Origin: Candidatus Adlerbacteria bacterium | GTDB lineage: Bacteria; Patescibacteriota; Minisyncoccia; Phycocordibacterales; SBAW01 | Assembly (NCBI GenBank): GCA_903851045.1 | Contig: CAINNF010000015.1 | Coordinates: 96,644 to 160,643, forward strand | Direction: 5' to 3' | Length of the DNA: 64,000 nucleotides | Part shown: piece by piece, positions 21,150 to 59,565 of the stretch | How positions within the stretch are numbered: the first letter of the stretch is position 1 | Layout: the number at the start of each line of letters is the position of its first letter | Translations under genes and position numbers: made by a program | Notes under the pieces: model-generated | What the model saw: the letters and a program-made list of their open reading frames with translations, nothing else | Told to the model about the DNA's origin: nothing | The model's database searches: none

Positions 21150-22481
21150 TCAGTGAGCGCCCTCCAGCCGATCTTCCAGCTTCCCTGCCAGGAGGCTGTA
21201 GAAGAACGGATTGCGCGTGGCGAGAATCTGCAGAGCCGCCAAGAGTGCGTTCCCGGGACTGAGCACAGTGCTCACCGGGACGCCGCTCGGCATCCGCAAC
21301 GAAGACCAGACATCCTCAGAGAAACTGCCGACGGTTGCAGGAACCGTGATAACCGGAGCGACCGACGCAGCCGACAACAGAGGCCCGGCAGCGTTGCTCA
21401 TGCCGACGTACGCGATAACCACCGAGCTTGGCACCTCTTGGAGCATCCGCCGAAGGGTCGCGAGCGCCCGCTCCGGTTCCTTGTGGGCGGAGCAAGTTAC
21501 GATCGGCATAACGAAGTTCTGAGGCAACAATGCACCAAGCGCTTCACACGCCCTATGGAACACCTCAACATCGTCCGACTCCGACCCACGCCACAGAATG
21601 ATCCTCTGGCGAGGAAGGTGGAATCGGTCGGTGAGTTCGGCAACCAGCCGATACTTGGCGAGCACGTCATCAAGTGCACCACCATCGCGGTAAGCTTGCT
21701 TGTCGATGTACGCGCCGTTATCGAGAACGCGCCATGAATCATTATCGATGACGTCGGCAAGAAGCAAAGCGCCGCCCGAAGTAAGACCGAACTCCACCTT
21801 AAAGTCGACGAGAGTGCGGCCTTCAAGTTGCCACGCTTTCTCCAACACGAGGAATGCCTGACGAGCAATGCGAGCCATCTTGTCGAAGAGCGCAGCTTCG
21901 TTATCGACAGTAAAGACTTCCGCGTCGCTGAGCACGAGGAACGGCTTCGCGCCATGGATCGGCTTCGCGGGGTCGTACAGGCAGATCCTCGGCTCGTCGG
22001 CGTTTGGATCATAGATCATGAGCGGATCGTCGCACGGCAATGCACATTCGCCCCAACGCTTACCGTTCGTCTTAAGATAGAACTCGACGACAAGTCGCGG
22101 GAAGAGGTGACCCTTGGAGATGTGCGGATGTCGCTTAAGAAAGGACCCGTGCGCCTCGCGCCGGACCACCACTTCGTACGGGAGCATGTCGCAAAGGTGT
22201 GCGACGAACGACGTTGGGTCGCGCTGAAGTATGTACGCGACCGGAAGGCCGCACGCACTCAACAGTCGAAATACGTTGGAGGTCGTTCGAGTCGCGAGCG
22301 CCGCCTTGCCCGACAGGATGTCGTGCTTAGCACCATCACCCGCAGTGATATCGTCTTTTGCGGCGAGGACTCCTAGACCAGGCCGTCCTTTGACCGCAAA
22401 AACTCGCTTGGTCTTACCTTCGGCGAGCAGCTCGCCGTTCGGATAGGCGAAGATGAGATCATCGGCTGTCTGATTATTCAT
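21150..22481 (-). CDS. bifunctional SAICAR synthetase (PurC) / AIR carboxylase-mutase (PurE-class) fusion, PAICS/ADE2-like architecture
   Basis: N-terminal half: GKTKRVF, DDITAGDGAK, VDFKVEFGL (PurC). C-terminal half: RIILWRGSESD, AYVGMSNAAGPLLSAASVAPVITVPATVGSF, MPSGVPVSTVLSPGNALLAALQILA (PurE). ATG at 22479-22481. Confidence 0.8.
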   Translation of the reverse strand: MNNQTADDLIFAYPNGELLAEGKTKRVFAVKGRPGLGVLAAKDDITAGDGAKHDILSGKAALATRTTSNVFRLLSACGLPVAYILQRDPTSFVAHLCDMLPYEVVVRREAHGSFLKRHPHISKGHLFPRLVVEFYLKTNGKRWGECALPCDDPLMIYDPNADEPRICLYDPAKPIHGAKPFLVLSDAEVFTVDNEAALFDKMARIARQAFLVLEKAWQLEGRTLVDFKVEFGLTSGGALLLADVIDNDSWRVLDNGAYIDKQAYRDGGALDDVLAKYRLVAELTDRFHLPRQRIILWRGSESDDVEVFHRACEALGALLPQNFVMPIVTCSAHKEPERALATLRRMLQEVPSSVVIAYVGMSNAAGPLLSAASVAPVITVPATVGSFSEDVWSSLRMPSGVPVSTVLSPGNALLAALQILATRNPFFYSLLAGKLEDRLEGAH

Positions 22482-22605
22482 CACCATTCCCCTTTCGTGG
22501 GATATGTGGTTGATCGAAAGAAACAAGTCCAAAAATACCCTACTCGAAAAACAGAGGCTTCGCAACAACACTAAAGGCGCTCACCAAATAGTTGCACCTT
22601 AACCT

Positions 22606-22640
22606 TCCCGCGAAACATCTCCCCGCAGCTCGATAGCTCC
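22606..22640. repeat. 35-bp direct repeat, copy B (TCCCGCGAAACATCTCCCCGCAGCTCGATAGCTCC)
   Basis: See copy A. Lies in the divergent region upstream of the purC-purE gene. Confidence 0.8.
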
Positions 22641-22736
22641 GTTCTTGGCCTGGCATACATGGTCGTCGCAGGTGTCTTTACATACAATAATAAATATGTT
22701 ACATAAGTACTGGCAACCTGTTCTGGGAGAACAACC

Positions 22737-23357
22737 ATGCGTTTTGTGTTCGGTACGCGTTTTGCGTTGTGGATCGTTGTGTGGGCAGCGATCACCATCA
22801 CCTTGACCACTTGGGTTACCGCTTTGCTTATCGCGTGGGGTTTGGACGATACTCAGTCTGTCCTCGACCCGAGTGCGCACCTGTACGTCCTGCGCCAGTT
22901 TGTCTGGTGTATGGAGCTGTTCGCCTATGGCTCAATGGGGTGGAATGCGCTCGCAGGCGGTTACCTGATGCTCATGGTGCTTGGCATGCTGCTGGTTGGC
23001 GACCTTGGCATTCAGTTCGGGCTCTTCAAGAATGAGCTCGGCGAGATCGACAAGGTGCAAAACCGCGTTCTGCACTACTGCACCGTTCTCTTCCTCATCC
23101 AGGCCTACATCGGCGTCGGGAGCTGGATGATTCTGTACTTCATCAGCGAGCCCAGCGCTCACCTGGCGTCGATGACCCTGATTGAGGGCTCGAGGAGGCT
23201 GTTGTTTACGATTGGTGCACCCGTCCTCGTGATCATGAGCGGTCTGTACATGATGGATTTCCTGGGCAAGCAGTACATCATCGGCACCGCACCCCCGCGC
23301 TGGCTCCCCTCCCCCGAGCTTCGCGCCCGCATGCGCCGCTTCGGCCTGGGGCAGTAA
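22737..23357 (+). CDS. polytopic membrane protein (hypothetical)
   Basis: SD GGGAGAA. 5-6 TM helices. Terminator hairpins at 23383-23420. Confidence 0.55.
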   Translation: MRFVFGTRFALWIVVWAAITITLTTWVTALLIAWGLDDTQSVLDPSAHLYVLRQFVWCMELFAYGSMGWNALAGGYLMLMVLGMLLVGDLGIQFGLFKNELGEIDKVQNRVLHYCTVLFLIQAYIGVGSWMILYFISEPSAHLASMTLIEGSRRLLFTIGAPVLVIMSGLYMMDFLGKQYIIGTAPPRWLPSPELRARMRRFGLGQ

Positions 23358-23469
23358 TCCCAACCCCCGCCTCGTGCAAAGACTCGACACAAAGTCCTTG
23401 CACCAGCGGGGACTTTTTTATATGAAGTTCGTTCAACTAACGCAGTCAGACTACGTTAGTTCCAAGAAG

Positions 23470-25248
23470 CTAGAGCGTTTCGATAATTTTTGAAAGTAGC
23501 TGAGTTATACGCACTTTTGTTGTGTCAGAAAAATTACTCAATTTTATTTTCTCTTCATTGACTCCTATCATAAAATCTCTAGCGACAATAACTTTAGATA
23601 GCTTTGCAGCTTTCATAAACTCAGAATTTGTCGTAGCCTCATGGTTAGCATTATTTGATTTGAGGACAACATGATTAAACTCATCTCGAGAAAAAAGATC
23701 TTCAATTCCTTGGCAACCGTCGATCTTTATAAGTTTTTTCTCCTCACAGACCATGGAATCCTTTAGCTCTTTAAGAACTTTTCGTCCATGAGGTTCATCA
23801 TCAAGCACAATTGAAAAACTAAGCCCCCAACCGAGCATGAGATTTGCCAACAAAGGGAGATTCGCGCATCCGGTAGCTGGCAAAAAATTGACAGTCTCAC
23901 TTTTTGAACAAAGTTTCCAAAAAGCTTTAAAATAAAAAAACGCTGATATCTCTTCCAACAAAACATTATTACTTCTAGAAATCACAGTCTGATGAGATAC
24001 GTCTATCCCCATGTTTGTGTAGAGAGGCATCAAAGTGTCCATAGAGGCGCTTCCGAGGTCTTGAAAAGGAATAATTCTTGTCTCACTTTTTTCATCCTCA
24101 GTATCTGTTCGCTCAATTGCCAAGATACGATAGACCTTATCCATATCCAGCAAATACGGAGAATGGGTCGTGAAAATTATTTGAAGATTTTTCCTTTGCT
24201 TCTCAAACACCCTAAGGATATCCTCCTGCGCTTTGGCGTGTAGATTAGCTCCCGGTTCGTCTATCAAGAAAACCCTGCCTCCCCCTCTCCTCGCAGAAGC
24301 CTCAAGTTTTAAATAAAACGAAATAAACCATTTAACCCCCTTGCTTCGCTGGGCTGGAGACTGGCGCCCATTCTTATCCCTAATCCAAAATATAAGGTAT
24401 GGTTGTCCGGGTTTACCTAACTCTGAACTCTTGTGGTATTTTAACTCCAAGACGATCTCTATTTTGTCTTTCTTCCCAACCGTCTGGTGCCAATATTTTT
24501 GCAATTCAACATTTACCTTTTTACTTTGCACTTCGAGAAAGTCATCAATGAGGCGGACACTCGAAGGATTCAATAGATCCTCTATCTTTACGTCAGCTAT
24601 ATATAGAAAATTCTTTGCACCCTCATAGCCTAGAGCTTTTGTGTTTTTCTTCACTAAATCATCGAGATCAATTGTGGGAGGGAGTAAGCTGTCTTCTTTA
24701 AATATGTCTATACTTGGCAAACTATTAAATAATTCATCCACAAAATCACTTTCCTTTATTAAAACAAGTCTTTCGACTCGCTCAGAGATTTCTTCTAGAC
24801 TTTGGGTGGTGGTGTTATTTCCAACCTGGCTCTTTTCAGCCTCGGCAAAATTCTGCCACACACCTCTTAACTCTTCGTTCTCTAGAACCAACTCACCACC
24901 CTCGTAGTTGCCTGACTCCCATACCCTTTTCAAAGCAATACACTTTCCAATTTTCTCAAAGACTTTTTTGAAATTTTTAGGTAATTCTTTACCTTCAGAT
25001 AAACACTCTTGGAGTTCTTCGAGACTATCGAACTTAAAAATACAGGTAACTTCTGGCATTAAACCAGTGCTCCGAATATCATCTTGGTATACGTCCCCGG
25101 TTTCAAAGGCATGGATACCATCCAATACCGAAGATTTTCCTGACTCGTTTTGTCCAACAATAAGCGAAATCCCATCTGGTGACAAATCCTGAAATCCAGT
25201 ATCAATAATTGATCGAAAGTTTTGAATCCTGAATGCTTGTAATCGCAT
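23470..25248 (-). CDS. OLD-family endonuclease-like protein: N-terminal ABC-type ATPase (AAA_15/21-like) + C-terminal TOPRIM-like domain; AT-rich island
   Basis: N-terminus MRLQAFRIQNFRSI; Walker A GQNESGKSS; Walker B/D-loop RVFLIDEPGANLH; H-loop IIFTTHSP. C-terminal VLLEEISAF and IVLDDEPHG are TOPRIM-like E and DxD motifs. GC is about 40%, against about 56% in the flanks. Confidence 0.8.
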   Translation of the reverse strand: MRLQAFRIQNFRSIIDTGFQDLSPDGISLIVGQNESGKSSVLDGIHAFETGDVYQDDIRSTGLMPEVTCIFKFDSLEELQECLSEGKELPKNFKKVFEKIGKCIALKRVWESGNYEGGELVLENEELRGVWQNFAEAEKSQVGNNTTTQSLEEISERVERLVLIKESDFVDELFNSLPSIDIFKEDSLLPPTIDLDDLVKKNTKALGYEGAKNFLYIADVKIEDLLNPSSVRLIDDFLEVQSKKVNVELQKYWHQTVGKKDKIEIVLELKYHKSSELGKPGQPYLIFWIRDKNGRQSPAQRSKGVKWFISFYLKLEASARRGGGRVFLIDEPGANLHAKAQEDILRVFEKQRKNLQIIFTTHSPYLLDMDKVYRILAIERTDTEDEKSETRIIPFQDLGSASMDTLMPLYTNMGIDVSHQTVISRSNNVLLEEISAFFYFKAFWKLCSKSETVNFLPATGCANLPLLANLMLGWGLSFSIVLDDEPHGRKVLKELKDSMVCEEKKLIKIDGCQGIEDLFSRDEFNHVVLKSNNANHEATTNSEFMKAAKLSKVIVARDFMIGVNEEKIKLSNFSDTTKVRITQLLSKIIETL

Positions 25249-25298
25249 AATGGTACAAATCTACCACATTCCTTTAAATAAAATAGCAACAAGACATA

Positions 25299-25964
25299 TT
25301 ACTTCGGATTTTTGATGAGCCCGACCACTTTGCCGCTGATGGAGAAGTCATCGTCTTCGTGGATATAAATGGGCTCGTAGTCGAGGGAGGACTCGGCTTT
25401 GAGGACTATTTGGTCGTTTTCTTTTCGGTCGTCTATGTAGCGCTTGATGGTGGCTTTGTTGTCGACCAAGGCTAGGACTATGTCGCCGGTTGAGGCAGTG
25501 CGGCTTTCGCTGTCGACTATGACATAGTCGCCGTCGTCGATGCACTTCTCGCCCACCTTCGCGCGGTTCATGGAGAGGCCGTCGGTTTTGATGGCGTAGA
25601 GGCCGCGCGGGCGGGAGCGGCCGACGAGGCGGCTGGAGACGCGGAGGAAGCCTTGGAAGTTCGCCTCCGCGAAGATAGTCGCGGGGCCGCAGTTGGCGGT
25701 GCCTATGACGGGGATAGAGAACATGCTCGTTTTGTTTTCAAGCAAGCCCTTGGACCATGTCGGCGTCGTGGCGGCGCGGGTCATCACGCCTTTGGCGCGG
25801 TCGAGCGTGACGAAGCCTTTTTTCTCGAGCTGGAGAAGGTGGTGTTTGATCTTCTGCGGAGCCTCCTGGGGGGCGCCTATGAGCCGCGCGACATCACGAA
25901 GCGAGAGCTTCGCTAAATTTTCGCTACGGGAGAGCTCGAGTATTTTCTCTTGGATCTCGTGCAT
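25299..25964 (-). CDS. lexA: LexA-like repressor (N-terminal LexA wHTH + C-terminal S24 peptidase)
   Basis: IQEKILELS...HLLQLEKKGFVTL is a LexA DNA-binding domain. GLSMNRA (Ser) and KRY (Lys) form the S24 catalytic dyad. It is 50 nt upstream of the OLD gene on the same strand. Confidence 0.8.
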   Translation of the reverse strand: MHEIQEKILELSRSENLAKLSLRDVARLIGAPQEAPQKIKHHLLQLEKKGFVTLDRAKGVMTRAATTPTWSKGLLENKTSMFSIPVIGTANCGPATIFAEANFQGFLRVSSRLVGRSRPRGLYAIKTDGLSMNRAKVGEKCIDDGDYVIVDSESRTASTGDIVLALVDNKATIKRYIDDRKENDQIVLKAESSLDYEPIYIHEDDDFSISGKVVGLIKNPK

Positions 25965-45873: not shown

Positions 45874-46022
45874 TGTAACGATACCACTGAGTCAGCGAGC
45901 CTCCCCACGGAGGCTCTTTTTATATGTACCTCCAGCAAAAGCTAGGAGGTATGACATATGAAAAAGGCCGCCCCACGAGAGGGCGGCCGAAGGAAGACAA
46001 GGAATGTTTCTGCAAATGTCGC

Positions 46023-46862
46023 TCAGCGACAAGTGAGCCACAATGGCGCATGGTCCGACGCCAGCGTTGCGGTGCCGACCGCGAGACCGTACACACACAT
46101 CTCACGCGAGACGAACACATAGTCGGCATGTCTCTGTTCGTCCAGGTAGAACTTCCGATACCGGGGCGTACGCGTACAGTCGATCTCATCCTCGCGGATG
46201 AGATTGCGCAGAGGGCCGCAATACTGCGACCCCCGCTCCAAGATCGTGATCGCATCCGTATCCAGTGCGAGATTGAGGTCCCCACCAAAGATGATTCGTC
46301 TGGTGGAATACTGTCGTGCTACCTCGTCGAGATACCGCAAGACCTGACGCGACTGTTCGTCCCGACGAGGATCGTCACCCTTCGTATTCTCGGGGATCCA
46401 AATCCCGTGCAAATGAGCGACGACGTAGGTGTGTCCATCCATGCGCACGACCACATACTGCAACATTCGTTCGCGGACACCCGGCGTGTCCTGCAAAATG
46501 GGGACACTCGCATGCTCGAGAACCTCGAGACCGTGCCTTTCCAAAAGCGCGCTGCCAAACCCGATGCCGTGATAGTCCTTACCCGTACGCCTGCACTGCC
46601 AAGTATTGTAGGCCGGTGTCGCATACTCGATGTTATAGCTCGGACTAAACTCCCGCTGCAGTTCCCCCAGACCATCGATGTAGCTCGGCGGCTCGTCGGG
46701 ATTCGTACTCGTGTGGACGCGCGGCACGGGGCTATAAGGATGCCCCATGCTCGTGACCTCGGTCAGACAACAGAGATCGTACGGACGCCTGCGCAGATAG
46801 TCGCGAATACCGCTGGGGTCGCGATGACCCCAGATATTCCAGAACAGCACCGATAGTGTCAT
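46023..46862 (-). CDS. endonuclease/exonuclease/phosphatase (EEP) family protein
   Basis: LFWNIWG N-terminus. C-terminal GGDLNL and SDHAPL motifs. Confidence 0.75.
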   Translation of the reverse strand: MTLSVLFWNIWGHRDPSGIRDYLRRRPYDLCCLTEVTSMGHPYSPVPRVHTSTNPDEPPSYIDGLGELQREFSPSYNIEYATPAYNTWQCRRTGKDYHGIGFGSALLERHGLEVLEHASVPILQDTPGVRERMLQYVVVRMDGHTYVVAHLHGIWIPENTKGDDPRRDEQSRQVLRYLDEVARQYSTRRIIFGGDLNLALDTDAITILERGSQYCGPLRNLIREDEIDCTRTPRYRKFYLDEQRHADYVFVSREMCVYGLAVGTATLASDHAPLWLTCR

Positions 46863-46974
46863 CTTCTATCTCCAAAGATCCTACAATTAGATTAACACAC
46901 AATTATTTTTATGCAAGGTTTGCGCAGGTGCGGGGTTGGAACTTGTCGTGTGACTCCCGTATACTAACGAGTAC

Positions 46975-47508
46975 ATGACCACACCCTTTCTTATCCTTGT
47001 CGACGGGCCGATGGGTTCGGGCAAGACGACCACGACGAAACTGCTGAGCGAGAAGCTGCCCGACGCGGCACGAGTCGCGTTGCCGGATATAAAAAGACTC
47101 GTCCCCAACTACCGGGAGAACGAGCAGACGCTCACAGTGATCCGGGAAGTGATGCGTGTGATGATCGACACTTATCTTAAGTTCGGGGTGAGCGTCATCG
47201 TCGAGCAGATAACGCGAGCCGAAGGCGTTGCTTTGCTTCGAAAAATCGCCGAGCAACACGGTGCTACGTTCTCTGCCTACCGACTCACGGCGCCGAAAGC
47301 CGTTCGACTGAAACGGGTCCACGAGCGGACGCGAGAGATGCTGGGCGTGCCAGCACTCCCCCAGTCAAAGATCGACGAGCTATCCAACTACTTCGAACCG
47401 AACGACGCATTCTATACCAACAATCCCGTTGACGCCGCTGAAACGATCGATACGCAAGACATGACCGCGGAGCAGGTCGCGGAAGTTATTCTAAGCAAGC
47501 TATCGTAA
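46975..47508 (+). CDS. P-loop NTPase, nucleotide/small-molecule kinase-like (AAA_33/zeta-toxin-like fold)
   Basis: Walker A GPMGSGKTT at the N-terminus. Confidence 0.65.
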   Translation: MTTPFLILVDGPMGSGKTTTTKLLSEKLPDAARVALPDIKRLVPNYRENEQTLTVIREVMRVMIDTYLKFGVSVIVEQITRAEGVALLRKIAEQHGATFSAYRLTAPKAVRLKRVHERTREMLGVPALPQSKIDELSNYFEPNDAFYTNNPVDAAETIDTQDMTAEQVAEVILSKLS

Positions 47509-47607
47509 GGATCGTCGACAACCTTGATTGCTGTCTCCATCCTTTTTGACATCAGGCACTATTTAGTTCATAGTGTCTGCTGGTGACCCGCCGGGTCGGC
47601 ACACCAT

Positions 47608-48009
47608 TTGGGAGGACATGACGATGCCTCGTCGATCGATCTACGAGAGAGAGATCATGCACACATAGCCGCGCGAAGATTACGAGACCCTGCAAAACCG
47701 CACAACGATGCGGTCGAAGCGATTCGTGCAGCGTTGGCCGAGGACGTCGCCGCATGGAACGAGCGCAACAGCAAGACGGTCGGCGGTACGCTTGAACTGG
47801 TCGTCGAGCAGAGTCGCAAGACGTTGATACATACCCTGATCATCCAAGGCAACCTGCTGGGAATAGCCTTTACCCTTGCCAGGATCACACCCAGTGACGA
47901 CGGCACGATGATGATCAGATTCAAATTCGCCGAAGATCGTCCCGAGCCGACGTCGATTGAGCACATGAGGCGGACTATCCAAAGATTCGATCCAGGCGCT
48001 CGGACCTAA
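47608..48009 (+). CDS. hypothetical protein
   Basis: ORF with a terminator (ACACTCGCGCGGTA-tcg-TACCGCGCGAGTGT + TTTTAT) at 48015-48050. Confidence 0.4.
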   Translation: MGGHDDASSIDLRERDHAHIAARRLRDPAKPHNDAVEAIRAALAEDVAAWNERNSKTVGGTLELVVEQSRKTLIHTLIIQGNLLGIAFTLARITPSDDGTMMIRFKFAEDRPEPTSIEHMRRTIQRFDPGART

Positions 48010-48094
48010 CCTTCACACTCGCGCGGTATCGTACCGCGCGAGTGTTTTATGTTCGCATCTGACATGCTGGTTCAAAGCGGGAACATATGTCGAC

Positions 48095-48349
48095 CTATCC
48101 CCGATGCGTGCAGCCAGCCCAGCAGCACGGTCGGCGCATCCCGCCAGCAAGCTTGGAGAGCGCCTTTTGTATCCGAATATCCCTCGTTTCTGCTTTTTTG
48201 CCAGAGGTCACCCAACAGATCCACTCATTGCGCGCAAGTGGCGTGATGTCCTGCCACAGCGCCCGCGCCGCAGGCGTCGAGAGGAGCGCCTTTCGCAAGT
48301 CTGCTGGCAACGCATGCACCACACCTCCCGCCATTCCCTCGTTGGTCAT
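48095..48349 (-). CDS. YdeI/OmpD-associated family protein
   Basis: LPADLRKALLSTPAARALWQDITPLARNEWICWVTSGKKAETRDIRIQKALSKLAGG and C-terminal CCWAGCTHR. Confidence 0.6.
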   Translation of the reverse strand: MTNEGMAGGVVHALPADLRKALLSTPAARALWQDITPLARNEWICWVTSGKKAETRDIRIQKALSKLAGGMRRPCCWAGCTHRG

Positions 48350-48510
48350 ACAGTCTATGGTACCAGACACCACGCACACCATCGATCACTATTATTTTAC
48401 TAGTCTGTCGTAGCCGCAGGCTGACGATCTTGCTTGATGCTGGAACCATCGCACAACCTATGGTAGGTTCTATGCGGACGTGCCGAAAGCAACAAACCGA
48501 GGAGGCCTAC

Positions 48511-49065
48511 ATGGCTCACATAACCTTCGACGAAACCGCGAGCAAGTCTCGACTGCCCACCTGGCGTGTAGCCTGCGAGAGATACCCCGGCCAAGTGACT
48601 CTGGAAGGAACGCCCTATCTAGGCATCTTCGAGTCCTGGCTCAAAGGTGTCGCTCAGCCGCTCGACGGCTTCACCCCCACATCTCCCCCAACATGGGAAG
48701 AGTTCGCAACTGCGAAGCACTACCGCACGAACAAAGGGGTGGTATCGGTAATAGGTTTTACCATTGATCTCTTCGATAATCTCATCACCGACGCGGAAGA
48801 ACTTCGCCGGATATACGAGGAGCGATGCCGCGCAACTCGGGTCGTCGAAGTGACCCAAGGCAACCGATCCGTCGCATGGCATCTTGCCGTCGACGATTCG
48901 CCTGATGCGCATGTCTGGTTCTCCCGGTTCTGGCATCCACAGGAAGTCGTGGAAGACGAAACGTCGGTCAAGATCTCGTTCCAACCTTCACTGCTCGCCC
49001 AGCTGCGACACTGGTTCTCGCTCAAACCCTGGTCGATCACGATCTACGCGCCGCAACTGGCATAA
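48511..49065 (+). CDS. hypothetical protein
   Basis: GAGGAGG sits 5 nt upstream of the ATG at 48511. Confidence 0.5.
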   Translation: MAHITFDETASKSRLPTWRVACERYPGQVTLEGTPYLGIFESWLKGVAQPLDGFTPTSPPTWEEFATAKHYRTNKGVVSVIGFTIDLFDNLITDAEELRRIYEERCRATRVVEVTQGNRSVAWHLAVDDSPDAHVWFSRFWHPQEVVEDETSVKISFQPSLLAQLRHWFSLKPWSITIYAPQLA

Positions 49066-49126
49066 CGCTCCGCGGATACGTCACACGACGTATCCGCTTT
49101 TCATATGGTCGAACCAATAACTGCGT

Positions 49127-49291
49127 TTATTTCAGGAACCGCACAGCGAAGGCGGCGCACACGAGCACGATGCCGATATTGGCGAGCAGTCGCTCCCAGA
49201 ATCGATCCCTAAAAAAGAGTATGTCGACCGCGACGATGAGCGCTATCATCCCCGCCACGCACGCCGCGACCACTATTCTAGATGTTCCCAT
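49127..49291 (-). CDS. possible 54-aa hydrophobic peptide
   Basis: Minus-strand ORF MGTSRIVVAACVAGMIALIVAVDILFFRDRFWERLLANIGIVLVCAAFAVRFLK, 14 nt downstream of the 49306 gene. Below the track cutoff. Confidence 0.3.
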   Translation of the reverse strand: MGTSRIVVAACVAGMIALIVAVDILFFRDRFWERLLANIGIVLVCAAFAVRFLK

Positions 49292-49305
49292 GCCTCTATT
49301 CTACG

Positions 49306-49758
49306 CTACAGAGGGATCTGTTCTATGGAGCCGTGCAATATCGTGGGCTGCATACCGAGAATCTCTTCCTTGAAGGGTGACTGCGCGGGCAAGTCGTTTA
49401 GAATATAGATCTTTTTCCCAGTAGCGAATGCATACCCCATCTCTAGGAAGCCGTTCGCGCCGATGTAGTTGGGCTGGCCTTTCTTCTCCCAGTTCGTGAT
49501 GAGCACCGCGTCGCTCGCGTCGATCTTTGCAAAATGTGTTAGGATCGCGCTCCCCTTCTTCTTCCATACGTCATGTTCGGGCGGGAAGGCATCGGCGCCT
49601 CCCTGCTGACCCACGAACTTCCCGACCGAAACACCATCTCCCGCGACCTCCAACTCAAGTGTCGGGGCAAGGACGGTATGACCCATCACCTCTAACGTCT
49701 GTTGCAGTTCGAGAAACTCAGTATAAAAAGCCATCGACGAGCAGATGCAGATCTTCAT
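49306..49758 (-). CDS. nucleoside 2-deoxyribosyltransferase-like (Rossmann-like) protein
   Basis: N-terminus MKICICSSMAF (like MKIYLAGP...) and C-terminal ANGFLEMGYAFATGKKIYIL, a pattern resembling NDT. Confidence 0.5.
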   Translation of the reverse strand: MKICICSSMAFYTEFLELQQTLEVMGHTVLAPTLELEVAGDGVSVGKFVGQQGGADAFPPEHDVWKKKGSAILTHFAKIDASDAVLITNWEKKGQPNYIGANGFLEMGYAFATGKKIYILNDLPAQSPFKEEILGMQPTILHGSIEQIPL

Positions 49759-49808
49759 GGGAGCCAGTATACCAGCAAAAAGCGTAGTGCTACGATCATA
49801 CTTCCACG

Positions 49809-50069
49809 TTACCAGATCCCCGGGCCATCTCCATCGAGATACCACAAGCCGTCGATCAATACTATTTTGATGGTCTGCCCATTCGCAACAACGCAGTCGC
49901 CGTACGTATCCGTCTTGTCTACCAGCCGCACACACCCACGAAACGCGTAATACCGCTCGAAGGTCGTGTGCGCGAGGTGTGTGGTATAGACCTGGTACAC
50001 CAACACCACTCCCGCAACCAGCAACAAGAGACCAACTTCCCACAAAGTTTTGTGTTTGTGTATTACCAT
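49809..50069 (-). CDS. small membrane-anchored protein (86 aa)
   Basis: ATG at 50067-50069. TM helix LWEVGLLLLVAGVVLVY. Confidence 0.4.
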   Translation of the reverse strand: MVIHKHKTLWEVGLLLLVAGVVLVYQVYTTHLAHTTFERYYAFRGCVRLVDKTDTYGDCVVANGQTIKIVLIDGLWYLDGDGPGIW

Positions 50070-50600
50070 ACATTCTATAGAACTGCGCTGAGGCACATAA
50101 GTCACCCTTGAGTATCTCTTTCCATATCCCACCCTCACACATCGCACTACTTTTATAACACCAAAGAGTTGGCTAGTGGACGCAAGATAATCTTTCGAAA
50201 ACAGTACCAATATGCAGACAAAGTACGAAAAACGAACCTCCATGTGGGAACTGTGGGGATCAAAGATAAAGAGAATTCACGCAGATACGTAGAAGCCAAA
50301 GACACCTTTATGACCCACTACACCCAACACGTGTCCCGCGACCACTAAGGAATATGTAGAAAAAGAAATGCCGCTTAGAATATAAGCGGCAAGGGTGGTT
50401 TGAGCTTGTCCAGTATTTTCCCCGAGGCACCACCAGGGAATTGTTGAACGATCACCGCCAGCAGTGGCCACCCAAGAAGGGTCGCGTCATTGTCCAAAAA
50501 CTACTCTTGGACCCCACGCCCACCTGACGTTCAGAGCTTAAGCCCGTATGATTGCCCAAACCATCCATATCTAATCACACTCCAACAAAAACACAAACAT

Positions 50601-50630
50601 GGAAATTGGGGAGGCGTCCAATTGATTACG
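50601..50630. repeat. partial tandem copy of MITE left end (GGAAATTGGGGAGGCGTCCAATTGATTACG)
   Basis: Exact duplicate of the first 30 bp of the adjacent element. Confidence 0.8.
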
Positions 50631-50640
50631 TGGAAATTGA

Positions 50641-50778
50641 AATTGGGGAGGCGTCCAATTGATTACGATTTACTGTGGTCTAATGGTAATCTCCATCCGC
50701 TATGTTAATCAATGTAGCATAGCAGGAACCAATTACCACACCACACGATTTTCAAATTAAACGGACGCCTCCCCATTA
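50641..50778. mobile_element. MITE-like 138-bp element, copy 1, with 12-bp terminal inverted repeats GGGGAGGCGTCC...GGACGCCTCCCC
   Basis: About 140 bp identical to copy 2 at 53614-53753. No coding capacity. Intergenic. Confidence 0.75.
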
Positions 50779-50860
50779 TTCCATTATTCAGGAAAGGAAA
50801 GAAAGGAAAAGGCCACGGTTACTTGATTAACCGTGGCCCAGTATCGCCGGAGCGTGTCGG

Positions 50861-51943
50861 CTAGCGCTCGAACGCTCTTCCCGCTATCCGCTTGTAGAGC
50901 GCGGCAGTGTTGCCGCGCTCACCCTCGAAGTGTGAGGTACGGATGATCCCCGCAAGAATCTCAAGGCGCCAATCATACCTGGCGGTCCCCGGGTCGGTTA
51001 CCGAGGTCAGGATAATGATGCCTTTCGGGCCATAGAACTCCTGGAAGATGATACCGAGGGTTCGTCTCCAATATTCAGGCGCTTGCGCGTCGAACAGTAT
51101 CTTAGCGAGGCTGGGATCTTTGCCGAGCGCCTCCAGCACATCCTCTTGCATCTGCTGGAGGAGTGGGGAGACGAGGTCGATGTCGCGATGGTCGTTGTAG
51201 ACCCTGTTGACACCACGCAGGTCGGACCTCATCCACACGTCCGTGAGCACCCCACTCACGAACCCATGACGAAACCGAGGACCATGCATCGTACCGAATC
51301 CATGCAGCCAATGACCGTAGTAGTAATCGTGGCTGATGTACCGACCCGAACGAGCATCTTCGACGTGGGCCAAAGTCCAGGCGGTCACAAGTGTCTGAAA
51401 CGCAGACGCCAGGTCGGCAACTTTCTCGAAGAAGGAATTCGAAGGGTTGCCCGCGTAGGCGTCGTCTGGGCCTTCATATCGAAGGTACAGGGTCTCGTTA
51501 TCGTGACTGAATCCAGCTTCGGCTTTCGCCCATTCGGGAGAACCCTGCTCAACCTCAGCGATCGAGAAGAAGCCACCAAAGCCAGCGTCGCGTCGAGGGA
51601 AGATGGTGGTGAAATAGTACACCGTGCGGTCTCCCGCATGCACCTTGACCTCGTCGACCTCGATCACACTCTTTTGGATCACCGTGTCGGCGAGATGGAG
51701 TCTCAGTAGACGGTCTCCCTCCCTCAGCTCATGCAGATTCACCCACCTCAACCTCACACCGAACATGCCGTCGGTGATCCCGAGTTGACCTATGTCGGCC
51801 TTGATCCGTTCCAGATCCTCGCGTCGAGGTCTCCGTTTGCCGGGAACCAAAATTCGAGAGGACTGTCCATAGAGATACGGCGCGATGTCGACGAGATCGT
51901 CCTCGCTTCGGACTTGAATAAGCGGTTTACCCATTTTCGCCAC
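50861..51943 (-). CDS. hypothetical protein (360 aa), no recognised domain
   Basis: Long ORF with good coding statistics. Last gene of the MITE-bracketed cassette. Confidence 0.55.
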   Translation of the reverse strand: MAKMGKPLIQVRSEDDLVDIAPYLYGQSSRILVPGKRRPRREDLERIKADIGQLGITDGMFGVRLRWVNLHELREGDRLLRLHLADTVIQKSVIEVDEVKVHAGDRTVYYFTTIFPRRDAGFGGFFSIAEVEQGSPEWAKAEAGFSHDNETLYLRYEGPDDAYAGNPSNSFFEKVADLASAFQTLVTAWTLAHVEDARSGRYISHDYYYGHWLHGFGTMHGPRFRHGFVSGVLTDVWMRSDLRGVNRVYNDHRDIDLVSPLLQQMQEDVLEALGKDPSLAKILFDAQAPEYWRRTLGIIFQEFYGPKGIIILTSVTDPGTARYDWRLEILAGIIRTSHFEGERGNTAALYKRIAGRAFER

Positions 51944-52047
51944 CTCCTTAGTGCAGCGTTTTTAAGGGCGATAGTACCCAAAAACATAATATCACACTCT
52001 AAATACATATGTCAACAGGTTGTCGGGGAACATAATTTCCAGATCAA

Positions 52048-52716
52048 CTAGACGGCTCCGTAAGCTTCCGATGAAAGCGCCCCGAGATAGTCCCACAGTT
52101 TGGTGATACTTTTTTCTCTCGTCCAAAAGTTCAGGATCTTCTCACGAATGTCCTGATGCTGCGGATAGCCTTCGTCGTATGCTCCCTCGGGCATCAGATC
52201 TTTACACTCCACATTAAGCAGGACGGTGAGCGACTCTTTGAGATCATTATACTTGAGCGCTCCCAGTCGCTGCTCTTCGTCTGGGCCCAGACCATACCAT
52301 GTGTAGAAATGCCACAGCTCATGCATCGCTATCTTGCGTGGATAGAACACCGGCACCGTAACGAAGAAAAAATCGTTCTTGATGTTGTATGGGCGGCGGT
52401 TGTTGACCGTGAGATACGCATGTATGTCACGAGGAAGAGATACGCCAAAAAGAGCCTCCGCCCGTTGTTGGTACTCCCCCGCAACCGTGTCCCAGTCCTG
52501 TTGGTACTTGCGTATGTGTTCCTGAACATCGATACCCTTTTCGGCGATATACGCACGAACGAAACCCTCGACCATCTCGAGTGTCGGATCCTCGCCGCAG
52601 CGTGCCACCAACTGCTCATACACCCGAGTCGGCACCGAGGAGTTGTTCGAACTCTTCCCCTTGTTCAGGAGACACCACACATCCTTTCCTTCATCGTATG
52701 CAAAAATGACTTTCAT
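52048..52716 (-). CDS. hypothetical protein with HExxH motif (putative metallopeptidase-like)
   Basis: ATG at 52714-52716 with AGGAAA SD. IAMHELWHFYTWYG contains HExxH. Confidence 0.5.
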   Translation of the reverse strand: MKVIFAYDEGKDVWCLLNKGKSSNNSSVPTRVYEQLVARCGEDPTLEMVEGFVRAYIAEKGIDVQEHIRKYQQDWDTVAGEYQQRAEALFGVSLPRDIHAYLTVNNRRPYNIKNDFFFVTVPVFYPRKIAMHELWHFYTWYGLGPDEEQRLGALKYNDLKESLTVLLNVECKDLMPEGAYDEGYPQHQDIREKILNFWTREKSITKLWDYLGALSSEAYGAV

Positions 52717-52802
52717 GTTTTTTCCTAACAATATCTGGCAACATCAGAAATGAAGGAACCTATAGCCTACTGGGACTTTGGCACAAAGATCTCATGTAGA
52801 CC

Positions 52803-53381
52803 TTAGGATGTCCTTGCCAACGTTTTCAGCTCTGTGACCAACGGCCGCTCGTCTCCTTCAAAACTCGTTACCATCGCCTGCAAAAAACGCTCGGGGTCGA
52901 GTCGGTCGAGATTAAGCGGATGGCCAGCATGGTCGGCAAGGAGCAAGAGAAAGGATGTCTGCACACGGCCATTACCCTCACGAAATGGGTGGATCGCGTT
53001 AAGTGTCGCAAGAAAATGGGCAGCACGCTCCGCAAACACGTCGGTAGAAAGTCCGCAGAGATAGTCCTGACGCTTCAGTTCATTGAACAGTGTTTGCATC
53101 TCTTGGTCGATATGCTCTGGGTAGCAAAATGCGCTACCACCCTTGCCGATACGCACCGTGCGAAATTCTCCCGCCCACGAATACACATCCTGAAAGAGGT
53201 GGTGGTGAATGGCACAATAGTGAGTGACATCAAGCAGCCCGAGCGGAAGCGGTTCGTCAGAGCGCTGAGTGGTCATAGCCGCCTCAAACTCATCGAGCAA
53301 GTTTTGCTCTCTGCTATCGAGCAGATTCTTAAGAACTGTCGTCCCTTCGTAGCAATAGATATCTTGTACTGCGTCGTACAT
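52803..53381 (-). CDS. fic: Fic/Fido-domain protein (AMPylator family)
   Basis: Canonical Fic motif HPFREGNGRVQTSFL. Confidence 0.85.
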   Translation of the reverse strand: MYDAVQDIYCYEGTTVLKNLLDSREQNLLDEFEAAMTTQRSDEPLPLGLLDVTHYCAIHHHLFQDVYSWAGEFRTVRIGKGGSAFCYPEHIDQEMQTLFNELKRQDYLCGLSTDVFAERAAHFLATLNAIHPFREGNGRVQTSFLLLLADHAGHPLNLDRLDPERFLQAMVTSFEGDERPLVTELKTLARTS

Positions 53382-53390
53382 GGTCTGGAG

Positions 53391-53591
53391 TTACCGAGCG
53401 TACTTCTTGGAGATAGCTTGGCGTCTGTCTGCGTGAGAGAGATTCTTCTCCTCGAACACTTGAAAGTCCTTGCGCATCCCCGGAGTCAAACTGATACCCT
53501 CCACAGCGCTAATTTTAGCGAAGACCTTGCGACCAATAGTATAACTTTTGGGTATGTTTTTCACATTCATATTGTACCACACATCACCCAT
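53391..53591 (-). CDS. small protein upstream of fic (candidate Fic antitoxin/inhibitor)
   Basis: 66-aa ORF with its stop 7 nt before the fic start. Contains ISAVEG, which resembles the [ST]xxxE[GN] inhibitory motif but is not an exact match to it. Confidence 0.45.
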   Translation of the reverse strand: MGDVWYNMNVKNIPKSYTIGRKVFAKISAVEGISLTPGMRKDFQVFEEKNLSHADRRQAISKKYAR

Positions 53592-53613
53592 TCTCCAAAT
53601 TTAGGAAAATTGG

Positions 53614-53753
53614 GAAATTGGGGAGGCGTCCAATTGATTACGATTTACTGTGGTCTAATGGTAATCTCCATCCGCTATGTTAATCAATGTAGCATAGCAG
53701 GAACCAATTACCACACCACACGATTTTCAAATTAAACGGACGCCTCCCCATTA
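53614..53753. mobile_element. MITE-like 138-bp element, copy 2
   Basis: Identical to copy 1. TIRs at 53620-53631 and 53738-53749. Followed by CATTACC(C) tandem units. Confidence 0.75.
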
Positions 53754-53786
53754 CCCATTACCCATTACTGGACACCTCCCCGTTAC

Positions 53787-54389
53787 CTAGAGTCCTTGGA
53801 CATAGGGCGCTAAGGGATAGTACTCAAAGAGCGACTTACCTGATGCATCCTTACAGGATGCGATTTTGGCTGTGATTTGTGCGCGTTGTTGCGCAGAGTC
53901 AGCGTTCTTTACACGAACGATCTCCTTTTGATCTTCACTCGCCATGGCGAGTTTCCCTAGGTCATTACCATCGACCGAGTATTGGTCGACATAATCTTCC
54001 ATATCCATCATTAGAAATGTCTTATCGGTACATACGAAATGCGTCCTGTAGATGGACGGGTTCATGTCGACATACGCCCCTTTCACCAAGGAATTGAAAA
54101 TGCCCGTTGGGGCCAAGATTACCACAAGCACTAAGACGAGCAGTACCAGCAGAGTCAACACATACTGCTTGCGTATATACAGCACCCAACTCAACAAGAA
54201 AAGGATCGCTGGATATATAGCAAAAAATTGGCCCCAAGCGATGAGGCCTGCATACATGTCCCCTGGCGTGTCGTGCTGCATACCGAGCACAAGCAGTAGA
54301 GGCTCCAAGCCAATACCGACGACCCCCAAAAGGATAAGGAGTATCTTTGCAATCTTCCTATAATCCATACTAACCAGTATAACGTACAA
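53787..54389 (-). CDS. polytopic membrane protein (hypothetical)
   Basis: N-terminal half has 4 TM helices. Confidence 0.5.
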   Translation of the reverse strand: MYVILVSMDYRKIAKILLILLGVVGIGLEPLLLVLGMQHDTPGDMYAGLIAWGQFFAIYPAILFLLSWVLYIRKQYVLTLLVLLVLVLVVILAPTGIFNSLVKGAYVDMNPSIYRTHFVCTDKTFLMMDMEDYVDQYSVDGNDLGKLAMASEDQKEIVRVKNADSAQQRAQITAKIASCKDASGKSLFEYYPLAPYVQGL

Positions 54390-54542
54390 AAAATTTGGAA
54401 CCGACGCACAATCACACTCGCAGGTCGACCTCCCTCACGAACTGAGGTTGGTCGTCACGTTTTGTTTCAGAGCCCGATAAAATGAAACCATTATACCTCC
54501 TTGGACCACTATCGCTGTCCAGTTATGTGACTGTCCACCTCC

Positions 54543-55241
54543 CTACTTCCTCCCCTCCCACTCAAGGAGGAACTGCTTCATGTAGGCTTGGAGGTATTGG
54601 TGCCTTTGTTTGGCGATCGATGTGCCGGTTGGGGTGTTCATGAGGTCTTTGAGGAGGAGGATCTTTTCGTAGAAGTGGTGGAAGGAGGAGCTCTCGAGTT
54701 TGCGGTAGTTGGCGGTCGTGTTGATTGGTTGGGGCTTTTTGGTCGGGTCGTAGAGGGGGCGGTGTTTGCTGCCGCCGAAGGCGAAGGCGCGGGCGATGCC
54801 TATCGCGCCCAGGGCGTCGAGGCGGTCGGCATCTTGCACGATGTGGAACTCCTTCGAGGCGTCGGTGCGTCGCTTGTTCAACGAATGACTGAAGGACATG
54901 TTTTTGATTATGAACAACACTTGGTCGATCACCTCCCCCGGCACCTTGTTTGCCTTCAAAAAGTTCTCGGCAATCGTGTAGTCGTCCTCCGCTTTTCCTA
55001 TCACCTTTCGGTCACCGACGTCGTGGAGCAAGACGGCCAGGTCGATGATGAATTGGTCGGCCTTCTCCTTTTTGTTGATGGTCCGGGCGTTGTTGTACAC
55101 CCGCTCGATATGCCACCAATCATGCCCCGTCCCCTCCCCCACGAGGGACTTCTTTACAAAGAGGACTGTTTTTTTGAGTATTGCTTGTTTGTTCATACGT
55201 TCAGTTAAAGAAGTCGTCTTATCGCTCTGGCTTGGCTCCAT
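54543..55241 (-). CDS. HD-domain phosphohydrolase (YedJ/YpgQ-like)
   Basis: Contains GHDWWHIERV, LLHDVGD and DADRLDALGAIG, all HD motifs. Confidence 0.75.
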   Translation of the reverse strand: MEPSQSDKTTSLTERMNKQAILKKTVLFVKKSLVGEGTGHDWWHIERVYNNARTINKKEKADQFIIDLAVLLHDVGDRKVIGKAEDDYTIAENFLKANKVPGEVIDQVLFIIKNMSFSHSLNKRRTDASKEFHIVQDADRLDALGAIGIARAFAFGGSKHRPLYDPTKKPQPINTTANYRKLESSSFHHFYEKILLLKDLMNTPTGTSIAKQRHQYLQAYMKQFLLEWEGRK

Positions 55242-55377
55242 TATACTGCCGAATCACCCCGGCTATGTTCCGATAATGTAGTGAGGAGGACGGTACGGTC
55301 ACGATTAGACAATATGACCCGAAACATATTTGGATACACAAAGCTCCTGTTGAAAAAAAGAAAACCGGATGCGTAGA

Positions 55378-55938
55378 CTAGTGGTTAAATTGGGTGGACG
55401 CCACTATCTTTCGTAACATATCTTCGTATGTACTCACTTCAGAATCAGATACGTTGGCGATATCGATGTACAAACGGTCGCCAGCACTATCGAAAGGACC
55501 TGACAGAGCCTCAATATCATTTGCGTTGTCGGGAGATCCGTTGACAACGACACCTTGGTTTCTGTGATGCCAAAGGAGTCCTGATGTGTTTCCGATTGAT
55601 ACCACCTCTGGCTTCCCCGTGTTGCTAGGTGTGATCATACCCTTATTCGCCTCAGTAATAATGTGTGTCGAACCAAAAATTACCATACCCTTCGGCACAC
55701 TACCCGTGATAAGTTTGCCGGTATCTGATCCTGTGGGAACATACATGGTGAGACTAGAGGGTACCTCAAAAGAAAACGTACCCTGAGGATCTGCGTATGT
55801 AACCCAGCCGTTTCCCATATCGGTTACACCACTCGCTACACCACTTTTGTGTGCACTCCAATACACACCACCTGCAATAACCAGAGCGAATATACTGAGC
55901 AGAAAGATGGTGGAAAAACCTTTTTGAAAATTGTTCAT
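55378..55938 (-). CDS. membrane-anchored extracytosolic hypothetical protein
   Basis: ATG at 55936-55938 (MNNFQKGFSTIFLLSIFALVIAGGVYW). Confidence 0.5.
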   Translation of the reverse strand: MNNFQKGFSTIFLLSIFALVIAGGVYWSAHKSGVASGVTDMGNGWVTYADPQGTFSFEVPSSLTMYVPTGSDTGKLITGSVPKGMVIFGSTHIITEANKGMITPSNTGKPEVVSIGNTSGLLWHHRNQGVVVNGSPDNANDIEALSGPFDSAGDRLYIDIANVSDSEVSTYEDMLRKIVASTQFNH

Positions 55939-56091
55939 GTGGATATTGTAGCTCCAATTAGCCGTCAGTTCCACCCTTTTGCAGAACTCGCCCCGTGGCT
56001 CACGCAAAATGACACAAGGCTCCCTCTCTTGTGCTGTCTTAGTCACGTGTGGCCCGCCACGCGTGAGTGAGCGAAGCGAACGAATTTTGCG

Positions 56092-56165
56092 TGGCTGCGA
56101 GACTAGGATTCGAACCTAGATAGACAGATTCAGAGTCTGTCGTCCTACCATTAGACGATCTCGCA
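56092..56165 (-). tRNA. tRNA-Gln (anticodon CUG)
   Basis: Manual cloverleaf: acceptor UGCGAGA/UCUCGCA (U1-A72, G73), D-stem CGUC/GACG, anticodon stem ACAGA/UCUGU with loop CUCUGAA, T-arm CUAGG-UUCGAAU-CCUAG. CCA is encoded. Confidence 0.8.
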
Positions 56166-58287: not shown

Positions 58288-59565
58288 ATGCGCACGAACA
58301 GCATCGACCAACTCACACGCTTCCTAAGACAGCCGATCGTGCTGTCCGTGGTATTGGGGGCGGCGATACTTGGGACCGGAGCGTACTACCTACTCCATCA
58401 GGCAACACCGCTCCCGCCTCACGATTCGTTGCAGACGCCGCCACAACGAACCTCCTCTGAGACTTCCTCATCCACACCAAACACTATAACCACCCACACC
58501 CCACCACAAGCCGATGAGGCTGTGGTCAGTTCGATATCGGACACAAATACTTCCGCCACCTACACTCCGCCACAAGCCGATGAAGCTGTGGTCAGTTCGA
58601 TCCGCTGGAAACCTCTTACGAACGCCAAACCGATGCGGGTGATAGACCGCAAGGACGACACGGTGAGCGTGTACGCCGTCGGGACCTTTACCACTGGCAC
58701 ATACAACAACAAGATACTCGCGCTGTATCGTGACCGCACCGGTGGTGACGACGCTGGGTATGGCTACTTTATTTCTGACGCATCGGGTACCCCTATTGCG
58801 TGGGATACATCGCTCTTGGTCGATTGCATGGAGATGGGAGGGTGCGCCCCGACGTACCCGGCTCAATGGCATGAAACCGCTGAACCAAAGATTGGCCTCA
58901 CCGATCTCTTACACACTACACTGTCCAGTGTCCCTGCCGAGTTATATACCGACTCCCCATTCATCACCCAGACCAAAAAAGCTTCTTTCCTTTCTGGCAA
59001 CGTGGACTTCACTGCCACCAACACACCAGGACAAGTCGTCGACATCACCGTGAGTGGCTCTACACTTGTGCGGACACTTGTCACACAAAGCGACTATCAA
59101 GCGCCATTCCTCCCTACATATGCCTATACGTTGCAACTGCCGTTCGGAGTTACCGAATCGGCATCGCTCGTGCCCCCATTCTTCGCGCACGACCCTTGGA
59201 AGCAGCGTCCGCCAGATATATCGTGGTCGACCGGGAGCACGAGCGTTGTCCGATATGATTGGTATACTCCCGAATATTATGCGGGACATGGTATACCAAG
59301 CTGTATGACCGGTATATCTTTTGCGCAAGCGCGAGCGGCGTTCATCATAACTGGCCACACAAAGGATGGCGAGCCTCTCTATGAAATAGACCCGGCCACA
59401 TATCCGAGCGTCAACCGATGTTTGAGTAAAGAAAGAGAAAGCACATCTACTCCGGACGAATTAGCCACGGCACATCCGCTCTTCTTCTGGCAAAGTCCGT
59501 ACGGCGAATGGGAAGCGTTTGTACGCTCCGACATACTTTCGACGGCGTGGTTTGGCCACGACTAG
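58288..59565 (+). CDS. membrane-anchored extracytosolic protein with internal 21-aa tandem repeat
   Basis: TM helix IVLSVVLGAAILGTGAYYLL. TPPQADEAVVSSI appears twice, corresponding to a 63-nt tandem repeat in the DNA. Confidence 0.55.
   Translation: MRTNSIDQLTRFLRQPIVLSVVLGAAILGTGAYYLLHQATPLPPHDSLQTPPQRTSSETSSSTPNTITTHTPPQADEAVVSSISDTNTSATYTPPQADEAVVSSIRWKPLTNAKPMRVIDRKDDTVSVYAVGTFTTGTYNNKILALYRDRTGGDDAGYGYFISDASGTPIAWDTSLLVDCMEMGGCAPTYPAQWHETAEPKIGLTDLLHTTLSSVPAELYTDSPFITQTKKASFLSGNVDFTATNTPGQVVDITVSGSTLVRTLVTQSDYQAPFLPTYAYTLQLPFGVTESASLVPPFFAHDPWKQRPPDISWSTGSTSVVRYDWYTPEYYAGHGIPSCMTGISFAQARAAFIITGHTKDGEPLYEIDPATYPSVNRCLSKERESTSTPDELATAHPLFFWQSPYGEWEAFVRSDILSTAWFGHD

Follow-up and report, generated by a model that had tools for sequence, protein, structure and literature searches.

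Organisation of the repeat locus

A 64,000-nucleotide stretch of the Candidatus Adlerbacteria bacterium contig CAINNF010000015.1 (assembly GCA_903851045.1, positions 96,644 to 160,643), here called the window and numbered from its first letter, contains two copies of a palindromic, non-coding repeat unit of 140 nt. Between them lie 2.8 kb of DNA with four minus-strand genes, one of which encodes a Fic-type toxin. The features of the locus and its immediate surroundings are as follows.

50599..50630, plus strand: extra partial left-arm end (core plus 12 nt), 32 nt long and displaced by 37 nt from copy A
50626-50644: tandem-like units GGAAATT GAAATT
50639..50778, no strand assigned: copy A of the palindromic unit (exact repeat, hairpin, profile match)
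50645..50656, plus strand: core GGGGAGGCGTCC of the copy A left arm, with its centre GGAGGCGT inside an imperfect dyad AAWTGG / CCRWTT
50763-50774 (minus), 53620-53631 (plus) and 53738-53749 (minus): the remaining cores GGGGAGGCGTCC
50773-50789: tandem CCATTATT, 2.1 units
50861..51934, minus strand: 357-aa protein, with its own promoter at 52015-51986 and a terminator hairpin at 50839-50810
52048..52716, minus strand: 222-aa protein with an HELWH (HExxH) motif, seen in the sequence
52803..53381, minus strand: Fic/DOC adenylyltransferase-type toxin, 192 aa (Pfam PF02661, 1.4e-21; NCBIfam Fic / VbhT-like)
53391..53591, minus strand: 66-aa open reading frame (ORF) directly upstream of Fic, called as a gene in public contigs
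53607-53622: tandem AAATTGGG, two units
53614..53753, no strand assigned: copy B of the unit, identical to copy A, 22 nt upstream of the start of the minus-strand 66-aa ORF
53747..53768, no strand assigned: tandem heptamers CCCATTA, 3.1 units, overlapping the core tip
53770..53781, minus strand: degenerate extra right-end core GGACACCTCCCC (GGGGAGGTGTCC on the minus strand), a weak profile match
53787..54368, minus strand: 193-aa membrane-like protein, the chromosomal neighbour upstream in the gene sense, the same in all population contigs
56092..56165, minus strand: tRNA-Gln(CTG), at the edge of a lower-GC accessory stretch

An exact-repeat search of the window showed copies A and B to be 100% identical over 140 nt and in direct orientation, and BLAST extended the near-identity beyond the unit, to 97% across 50634-50786 and 53607-53760. 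The termini of the unit, GGGGAGGCGTCC and GGACGCCTCCCC, are perfect inverted repeats and reach 13 bp when the flanking T/A is counted. Both copies are intergenic, with stop codons in all six frames of the unit. The partial left end at 50599-50630 is 94–97% identical to the full copies and matches the site profile described below with an E value of 3e-8. An earlier note, made from the letters of the window alone, had described two identical elements of about 140 bp with terminal inverted repeats, non-coding and intergenic, with a partial tandem left end and short tandem units beside their ends (here found with Tandem Repeats Finder), placed in direct orientation around accessory genes. This description holds throughout, save that its start of copy A at 50641 was off by 2 nt. 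The extra core at 53770-53781, which lies 32 nt beyond the right arm of copy B, was absent from that note.

The 12-mer GGGGAGGCGTCC occurs in the window five times exactly and twice with one mismatch, where 0.5 occurrences are expected by chance, and six of these seven matches lie at the repeat locus. Neither BLAST nor a search with the site profile revealed further copies of the unit in the 64-kb window. The 5-bp flanks read AAATT and ATTAT at copy A and AAATT and ATTAC at copy B, and comparison of the flanks gave no target-site duplication at copy A, at copy B or around the composite. The identity of the two copies continues 6 nt and 4 nt past the tips of the inverted repeats. Folding of the unit, which the earlier note had proposed as a check, gave a long imperfect hairpin of 46–47 bp (-58 to -62 kcal/mol), with z scores of about -8.5 (plus strand) and -8.2 (minus strand). 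The hairpin contains three G-U pairs on one strand against four on the other and so shows no strand bias.

The site and its core

The 140-nt unit consists of two sites of about 65 nt placed head-to-head, with the left arm on the plus strand and the right arm on the minus strand. A site profile was built from an alignment of ten instances, whose consensus reads aatgg.aaatGGgGAGGCGTcCgtTT.ATT...aaat.agT.TG.t.Taat, and both arms of the unit match it with E values of about 1e-14 to 1e-15. Each site runs through two to three AT-rich 7-8-mers, the core GG-GGAGGCGT-CC, the string CCRWTTRATT and about 25 more conserved bases on one side. Short tandem 7-8-mers of this kind adjoin every tip of the window units and resemble repeated left half-sites.

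Nine of the ten instances have the same centre, GGAGGCGT, and L095b has AGAGGCGT; the centre of the extra window core at 53770-53781 also deviates (GGAGGTGT). TAAAYGG and CCGTTTR flank the centre, which gives an imperfect dyad of 6–7 bp around an asymmetric centre of 8 bp; the flanking arms vary yet retain partial dyad symmetry. A dyad around a short centre is the layout of simple tyrosine-recombinase core sites such as lambda BOB', loxP and FRT.

When read in the frame GGG GAG GCG TCC NNT TRA, every site variant carries a stop codon (window 50645-50668, 50751-50774 and equivalents; L093, L095, L125 and L006), and the sole variable base of the stop triplet toggles between TAA and TGA. The core may derive from the 3' end of a gene, or this may be coincidence. 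A small peptide encoded by the arms (MGRRPF...) was rejected, as indels between site variants break the frame, and tRNA- or tmRNA-like arms were rejected given that ARAGORN finds nothing and no T-arm can be drawn.

Related sites and their occupied and empty alleles in Patescibacteria

The 21-nt end motif TGGGGAGGCGTCCRWTTRATT was searched for in 185,579 reference genomes, IMG/VR (2.9 M viral contigs) and JGI metagenomes. No match was present in the reference genomes or IMG/VR, and three were present in the metagenomes, on contigs L004, L005 and L006. The only real match across the three public collections is that on L004, an AT-rich contig (GC content 0.34). Relaxed scans of viral sequences for the site gave nothing, or chance matches without the GG prefix or the heptamers. 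BLAST of the unit against PLSDB plasmids returned only noise, a literature search with the core string only unrelated primers, and Rfam, at gathering and at permissive thresholds, only tRNA-Gln and noise. The soil contigs L005 (142-165) and L006 (2057-2080), with a GC content of 0.52–0.57, each carry one TTGGGGAGGCGTCCATTTGATTAC upstream of glmM, which agrees with the window left arm at 23 of 24 positions. This 24-mer may be a further member of the family or a chance match.

On L004 two single arms, each preceded by tandem heptamers, form direct repeats around a 284-aa MNT-HepT (nucleotidyltransferase-HEPN) gene; over 43–46 nt they are 86% identical to the window right arm. The Fic and MNT-HepT proteins of this contig have thousands of homologues, and the few with a named source bear the labels Patescibacteria, Taylorbacteria, Zambryskibacteria or Nomurabacteria. 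The Patescibacteria sites are single arms of about 50 nt with no inverted pairing partner, and each is preceded by 7-8-mers like those of the window.

Both empty and occupied alleles are found among these relatives, in which members of the site family lie precisely where an MNT-HepT cassette without a recombinase is inserted. The empty alleles, from four samples (L125-L128), consist of gene X, one site, and then two Fic genes, Fic177 and Fic352. The occupied allele L095 shares the gene X flank of L125-L128; next come a site that has a ‘b-type’ extension, MNT-HepT and another site. The occupied alleles L093, L004 and L094 show a site, MNT-HepT, a site and then the Fic177 side. The downstream sequence of these three agrees with L125 over 1850 nt (97.8%), and the match sets in 10 nt ahead of the core. 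A comparison of L093 with L095 gives about 99–100% identity for the cassette with its upstream site but only about 80% for the downstream site, which is the pattern expected of an attP x attB exchange within the core. The cassette is 1.05 kb long, brings its own copy of the site upstream of its gene, and contains neither a recombinase nor an inverted end; it sits exactly at the resident site, with the result that a site is present on both sides. The breakpoints between alleles fall within the heptamer/core zone, where the core identity amounts to 16–20 nt. These Patescibacteria loci therefore show what distinguishes an attachment (att) site, namely empty and occupied alleles, duplication of the site around the insert and breakpoints in the core. 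The window right arm is similar to the b-type site that the Patescibacteria cassette carries, and like it faces the cassette genes. The site is missing from orthologous Fic loci with 90% Fic identity (L107-L116) and was therefore rejected as a conserved regulatory element of Fic.

Two further duplications were observed on contigs of this group. In groundwater Patescibacteria a direct repeat of about 60 nt from the guaA 3' end (L098, 3530-3600 and 4525-4590; also L099) surrounds a 72%-identical MNT-HepT gene and is an att-like duplication without any recombinase. On L093 the 3' end of the GAPDH gene (gap) is duplicated at about 80% identity (700-790 and 4270-4367) around the whole block of membrane gene, site, MNT-HepT, site, Fic177 and Fic352, which suggests that inserts without a recombinase are nested at housekeeping-gene 3' ends.

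The cassette genes and the surroundings of the locus

The Fic protein of the window cassette also matches PADLOC PDC-S04 (4.7e-71). The 66-aa ORF beside it, presumed from its position alone to be an antitoxin, has no Pfam, NCBIfam or PDB match, and the 222-aa HExxH protein has no family match and no PDB match; PDB sequence searches with the cassette proteins gave nothing useful. For the 357-aa protein only two homologues were found, in unrelated contexts that lack the sites, and it was therefore rejected as the enzyme that acts on them. In all three contexts its gene retains a promoter of its own and is preceded by a leader (within 51935-52015 in the window; L011, 130-230; L012, 90-180) of which about 45 nt are conserved (...GCGCTGCACTAAGGAGGTRGCGAAATGG); the leader could be cis-regulatory.

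The window is 100% identical to the lake metagenome-assembled genome GCA_903951275.1 and to the BUCK21 scaffolds, and about 12 population contigs of the locus all have the same arrangement. Several of them break off at the repeat, which is what k = 141 should give with a repeat of 140 nt, and two copies suffice to explain these breaks. DapD of the window has its best relatives at about 50% identity among the 185,579 species genomes, and the gene order is not shared.

Every gene between about 49 and 56 kb is on the minus strand, and the GC content of about 50–56 kb is 0.45–0.51 compared to about 0.56 elsewhere in the window. The accessory stretch at 46000-56000 encodes zeta-toxin/AAA_33, Exo_endo_phos, HD and Fic proteins together with many family-less proteins, and no integrase. 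Pfam annotations of the public contigs covering the window include no transposase, integrase or resolvase in the 64 kb, and the genes called across it contain no PF00589 or other recombinase domain and no Y1 transposase domain. The 3' end of tRNA-Gln is not repeated anywhere in the window, and there is therefore no sign of a classical tRNA-integrated island. The GC skew is negative on both sides of the repeat locus and shows no switch there.

Other repeats and islets lie further away. A 42-nt direct repeat, 93% identical (21011-21052 and 22603-22644), surrounds a purC-purE fusion gene (21150-22487, minus strand), near which a 31-nt hairpin with a perfect stem is present at 21093-21123. At 23000-25300 the GC content falls to 0.40–0.46 across a 592-aa AAA_15/AAA_21 ATPase (23470-25248, minus strand) that adjoins an S24 (LexA-like) peptidase (25299-25964); this has the look of a small defence-type islet. 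At 58490-58601 a 46-nt unit occurs twice, 66 nt apart and 91% identical, as a coding repeat within a 425-aa ORF (58288-59565).

Interpretation of the units and alternative explanations

The repeat locus is best described as a recombinase-less cassette flanked by specific recombination sites. The units may well be cis-acting, att-like recombination sites for an enzyme encoded elsewhere, present as inverted pairs that flank a captured cassette, and this is the reading we tentatively favour. The asymmetric site of about 50–65 nt would be both the recognition and the crossover site of a DNA recombinase encoded elsewhere in the genome. That recombinase would most likely be of the tyrosine type, because the core resembles two inverted binding elements of 6–7 bp around an 8-bp overlap. 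The 2.8-kb segment, with the 66-aa ORF and the Fic, 222-aa and 357-aa genes, would be a cassette without a recombinase that integrated at a site of this kind, and it would thereby have come to lie between two copies of the site, comparable to attL and attR. From the Patescibacteria alleles and the form of the core we infer the arrival of the window cassette in the same way as its Patescibacteria counterpart, the type of the enzyme and the position of the crossover.

Several observations are consistent with att-like sites. The site is rare and of low copy number, as att sites are, and none was found in the window beyond this locus. A target-site duplication is absent, and the identity of copies A and B runs past the tips of the inverted repeats. 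The window cassette is an accessory one with a toxin-antitoxin or defence-type gene and no recombinase, and the Patescibacteria cassette is of the same kind. In addition, the att-like guaA and gap 3'-end duplications surround recombinase-less inserts on the same Patescibacteria contigs.

Other observations weigh against att-like sites. No recombinase is encoded in the window or on any of the related contigs, which are short. The approximately 12 population contigs show the window cassette in one context only, with no inversion, no excised circle and no empty allele. The earlier note had regarded the two direct copies as a substrate for deletion of the intervening DNA, which is sound in principle, but a deletion allele is likewise absent from these contigs. 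The pairing of the sites into a palindrome has the look of a miniature inverted-repeat transposable element (MITE) and is not required by the att model. Given that copies A and B are 100% identical, parts derived from attP and attB are indistinguishable here, and in the Patescibacteria the crossover can be placed only to the heptamer/core zone. The right-arm-type sites show a weak in-register likeness to a Tn3-family inverted repeat, and a comparable outcome could arise from homologous recombination between dispersed copies.

The unit could instead be a classical non-autonomous transposon (MITE), as the earlier note had proposed, possibly a tiny Tn3-family derivative of the TIME type, and this we regard as rather unlikely. 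The two copies would then be a TIME-COMP- or IMU-like composite moved by a transposase in trans, and the single arms of the Patescibacteria would be solo ends. The palindromic, non-coding form of 130–140 bp, the perfect 13-bp terminal inverted repeats, the long hairpin, the two identical copies, the extra partial ends next to both outer sides and the setting in mobile DNA all agree with a MITE, and TIMEs both fold into long hairpins and, in pairs, mobilise the DNA between them (PMC4133298). For a Tn3-type element in particular, the tips begin with GGGG, and the right-arm-type sites share 19–21 of 38 in-register positions with the inverted repeat of Tn1721/TnAs1 (p 0.002–0.03 by segment shuffle, after a post hoc choice). 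This inverted repeat was confirmed as real by perfect matches in more than 5000 plasmids. Over the full range of sites the agreement is 16–21 of 38 positions (p 0.002–0.17, again a post hoc comparison), no likeness to the inverted repeat of Tn3 itself was found, and the sites lack the inner TAAG that Tn3-family inverted repeats have. The target-site duplication and cognate transposase that the earlier note had suggested looking for were found neither in the unit flanks nor in the 64-kb window respectively; no duplication of 5 bp or any other length marks copy A, copy B or the composite. The shared sequence beyond the tips (6 and 4 nt) also counts against a MITE, as does an end motif, hence a cognate autonomous element, that is unmatched in the 185,579 genomes and IMG/VR; within the window the unit has only its two copies. 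In the relatives the half-sites behave like attachment sites and not like the ends of a transposon. The Patescibacteria arms are direct repeats around a cassette that has no inverted end and lies exactly at a resident arm, and this cassette is therefore not the product of a two-ended transposase reaction.

That the repeat is inert, a palindrome duplicated once by segmental duplication or by homologous recombination with incoming DNA and kept identical through gene conversion, with no dedicated enzyme, is improbable. In this lineage only two full copies are known, and their arrangement is constant; an identity of 140 bp is enough for RecA-dependent exchange, and homologous recombination between copies is invoked for TIMEs too (PMC4133298). 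However, the arm is 86% conserved between genomes with a GC content of 0.56 and 0.34 and its centre is nearly invariant, which argues for selection on a site recognised by a protein, and the Patescibacteria breakpoints fall in an identity core of 16–20 nt, too short for efficient RecA exchange. A role at the transcript level, as an ERIC/REP-type mRNA stabiliser, a processing site or a terminator, or as a duplicated gene for a small structured RNA, which the earlier note had offered as its alternative, is very improbable. Here the very stable predicted hairpin (-58 to -62 kcal/mol, z about -8) and the position of both copies within co-oriented minus-strand genes, with copy B ending 22 nt before a start codon, stand against the lack of an Rfam family at the gathering threshold, with only noise in the permissive scan, and against the near-equal G-U counts of the two strands (3 vs 4). 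A separate intrinsic terminator is already present 3' of the 357-aa gene. The Patescibacteria relatives keep one arm without its pairing partner; it is therefore the sequence that is conserved rather than the structure. REP/REPIN elements with a RAYT were rejected, given a single locus in 64 kb and no Y1 transposase domain among the called genes, where this class has tens to hundreds of copies per genome.

It is possible, although doubtful, that att-like sites with the GGGGAGGCGTCC core belong to a so far undescribed cassette-capture system of uncultured bacteria, common to Patescibacteria and the lineage of the window. Through it a chromosomal recombinase would insert small recombinase-less toxin-antitoxin or defence cassettes, each with an asymmetric site of about 50 bp, at resident sites. 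Little is known of the mobile elements of Patescibacteria and other uncultured lineages. If the att reading is true, they would include a compact system of cassettes in which an enzyme encoded elsewhere moves toxin-antitoxin and defence genes, at a site whose conservation spans lineages that differ widely in base composition. Being short and specific, the site lends itself to direct searches, which could find the recombinase by co-occurrence and catalogue the cassettes. The interest would be greater if the site system were general in uncultured lineages; were the unit merely a low-copy MITE, the finding would be an ordinary one.

Comparison with known systems

TIMEs are 262 bp long, with 38-bp inverted repeats and target duplications of 5–6 bp (PMC4133298). 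The window locus has in common with them a pair of identical, short palindromic units, non-coding and bounded by terminal inverted repeats, on either side of a few kb of accessory genes, among them a toxin-antitoxin pair that in the window is presumed. In both cases the unit folds into a long hairpin, and on the att as on the MITE reading the enzyme would act in trans. The window unit differs in its length of 140 bp and in lacking an AT-rich duplication of 5–6 bp, the TAAG motif and any Tn3-family transposase in reach. Moreover, single arms related to it serve as insertion points for a cassette, unlike TIMEs.

Cis-mobilizable elements (CIMEs), which are att-flanked islands without an integrase, share with the window locus direct repeats of the attL/attR kind and the absence of recombination genes of their own. 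CIMEs derive from integrative and conjugative or integrative and mobilizable elements (ICEs/IMEs) at tRNA genes or gene 3' ends, whereas the window repeat is a free-standing palindromic or asymmetric site.

The recombinase-less modules of Xer-dependent IMEX and the pdif modules of Acinetobacter plasmids, which often carry toxin-antitoxin genes between short conserved flanking sites for a host recombinase, form a further parallel. Xer sites likewise have a dyad core around a central region, and the inverted pairs of the window recall the two inverted dif-like sites in the attP of CTX phage. The dif site is a 28-bp 11-6-11 site with an XerD-type arm, and its chromosomal copy lies at the replication terminus, where the GC skew switches. 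The window site has no TTATGTTAAAT-type arm, its centre is 8 bp rather than 6 bp (as judged against the established dif consensus), and the repeat locus is not at a GC-skew switch.

Integron cassettes are also recombinase-less, often carry toxin-antitoxin genes, have one imperfect-palindrome site each and, after insertion, are bordered by a site on both sides. Their attC sites are imperfect palindromes of 57–141 bp with the boxes RYYYAAC (R'', 5' end) and GTTRRRY (R', 3' end). As with attC, near-identical sites occur within one host. The ends of the window unit are GGGGAGGCGTCC, however, and the nearest GTTTAAT/ATTAAAC boxes are internal and in reverse order. The Patescibacteria sites are single arms rather than palindromes, the cassette-borne site stands upstream of its gene, and no IntI gene or attI is nearby. 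The proposed cassette-capture system would thus be a functional parallel to integron cassettes and Xer-dependent modules, with sites unrelated to those of either.

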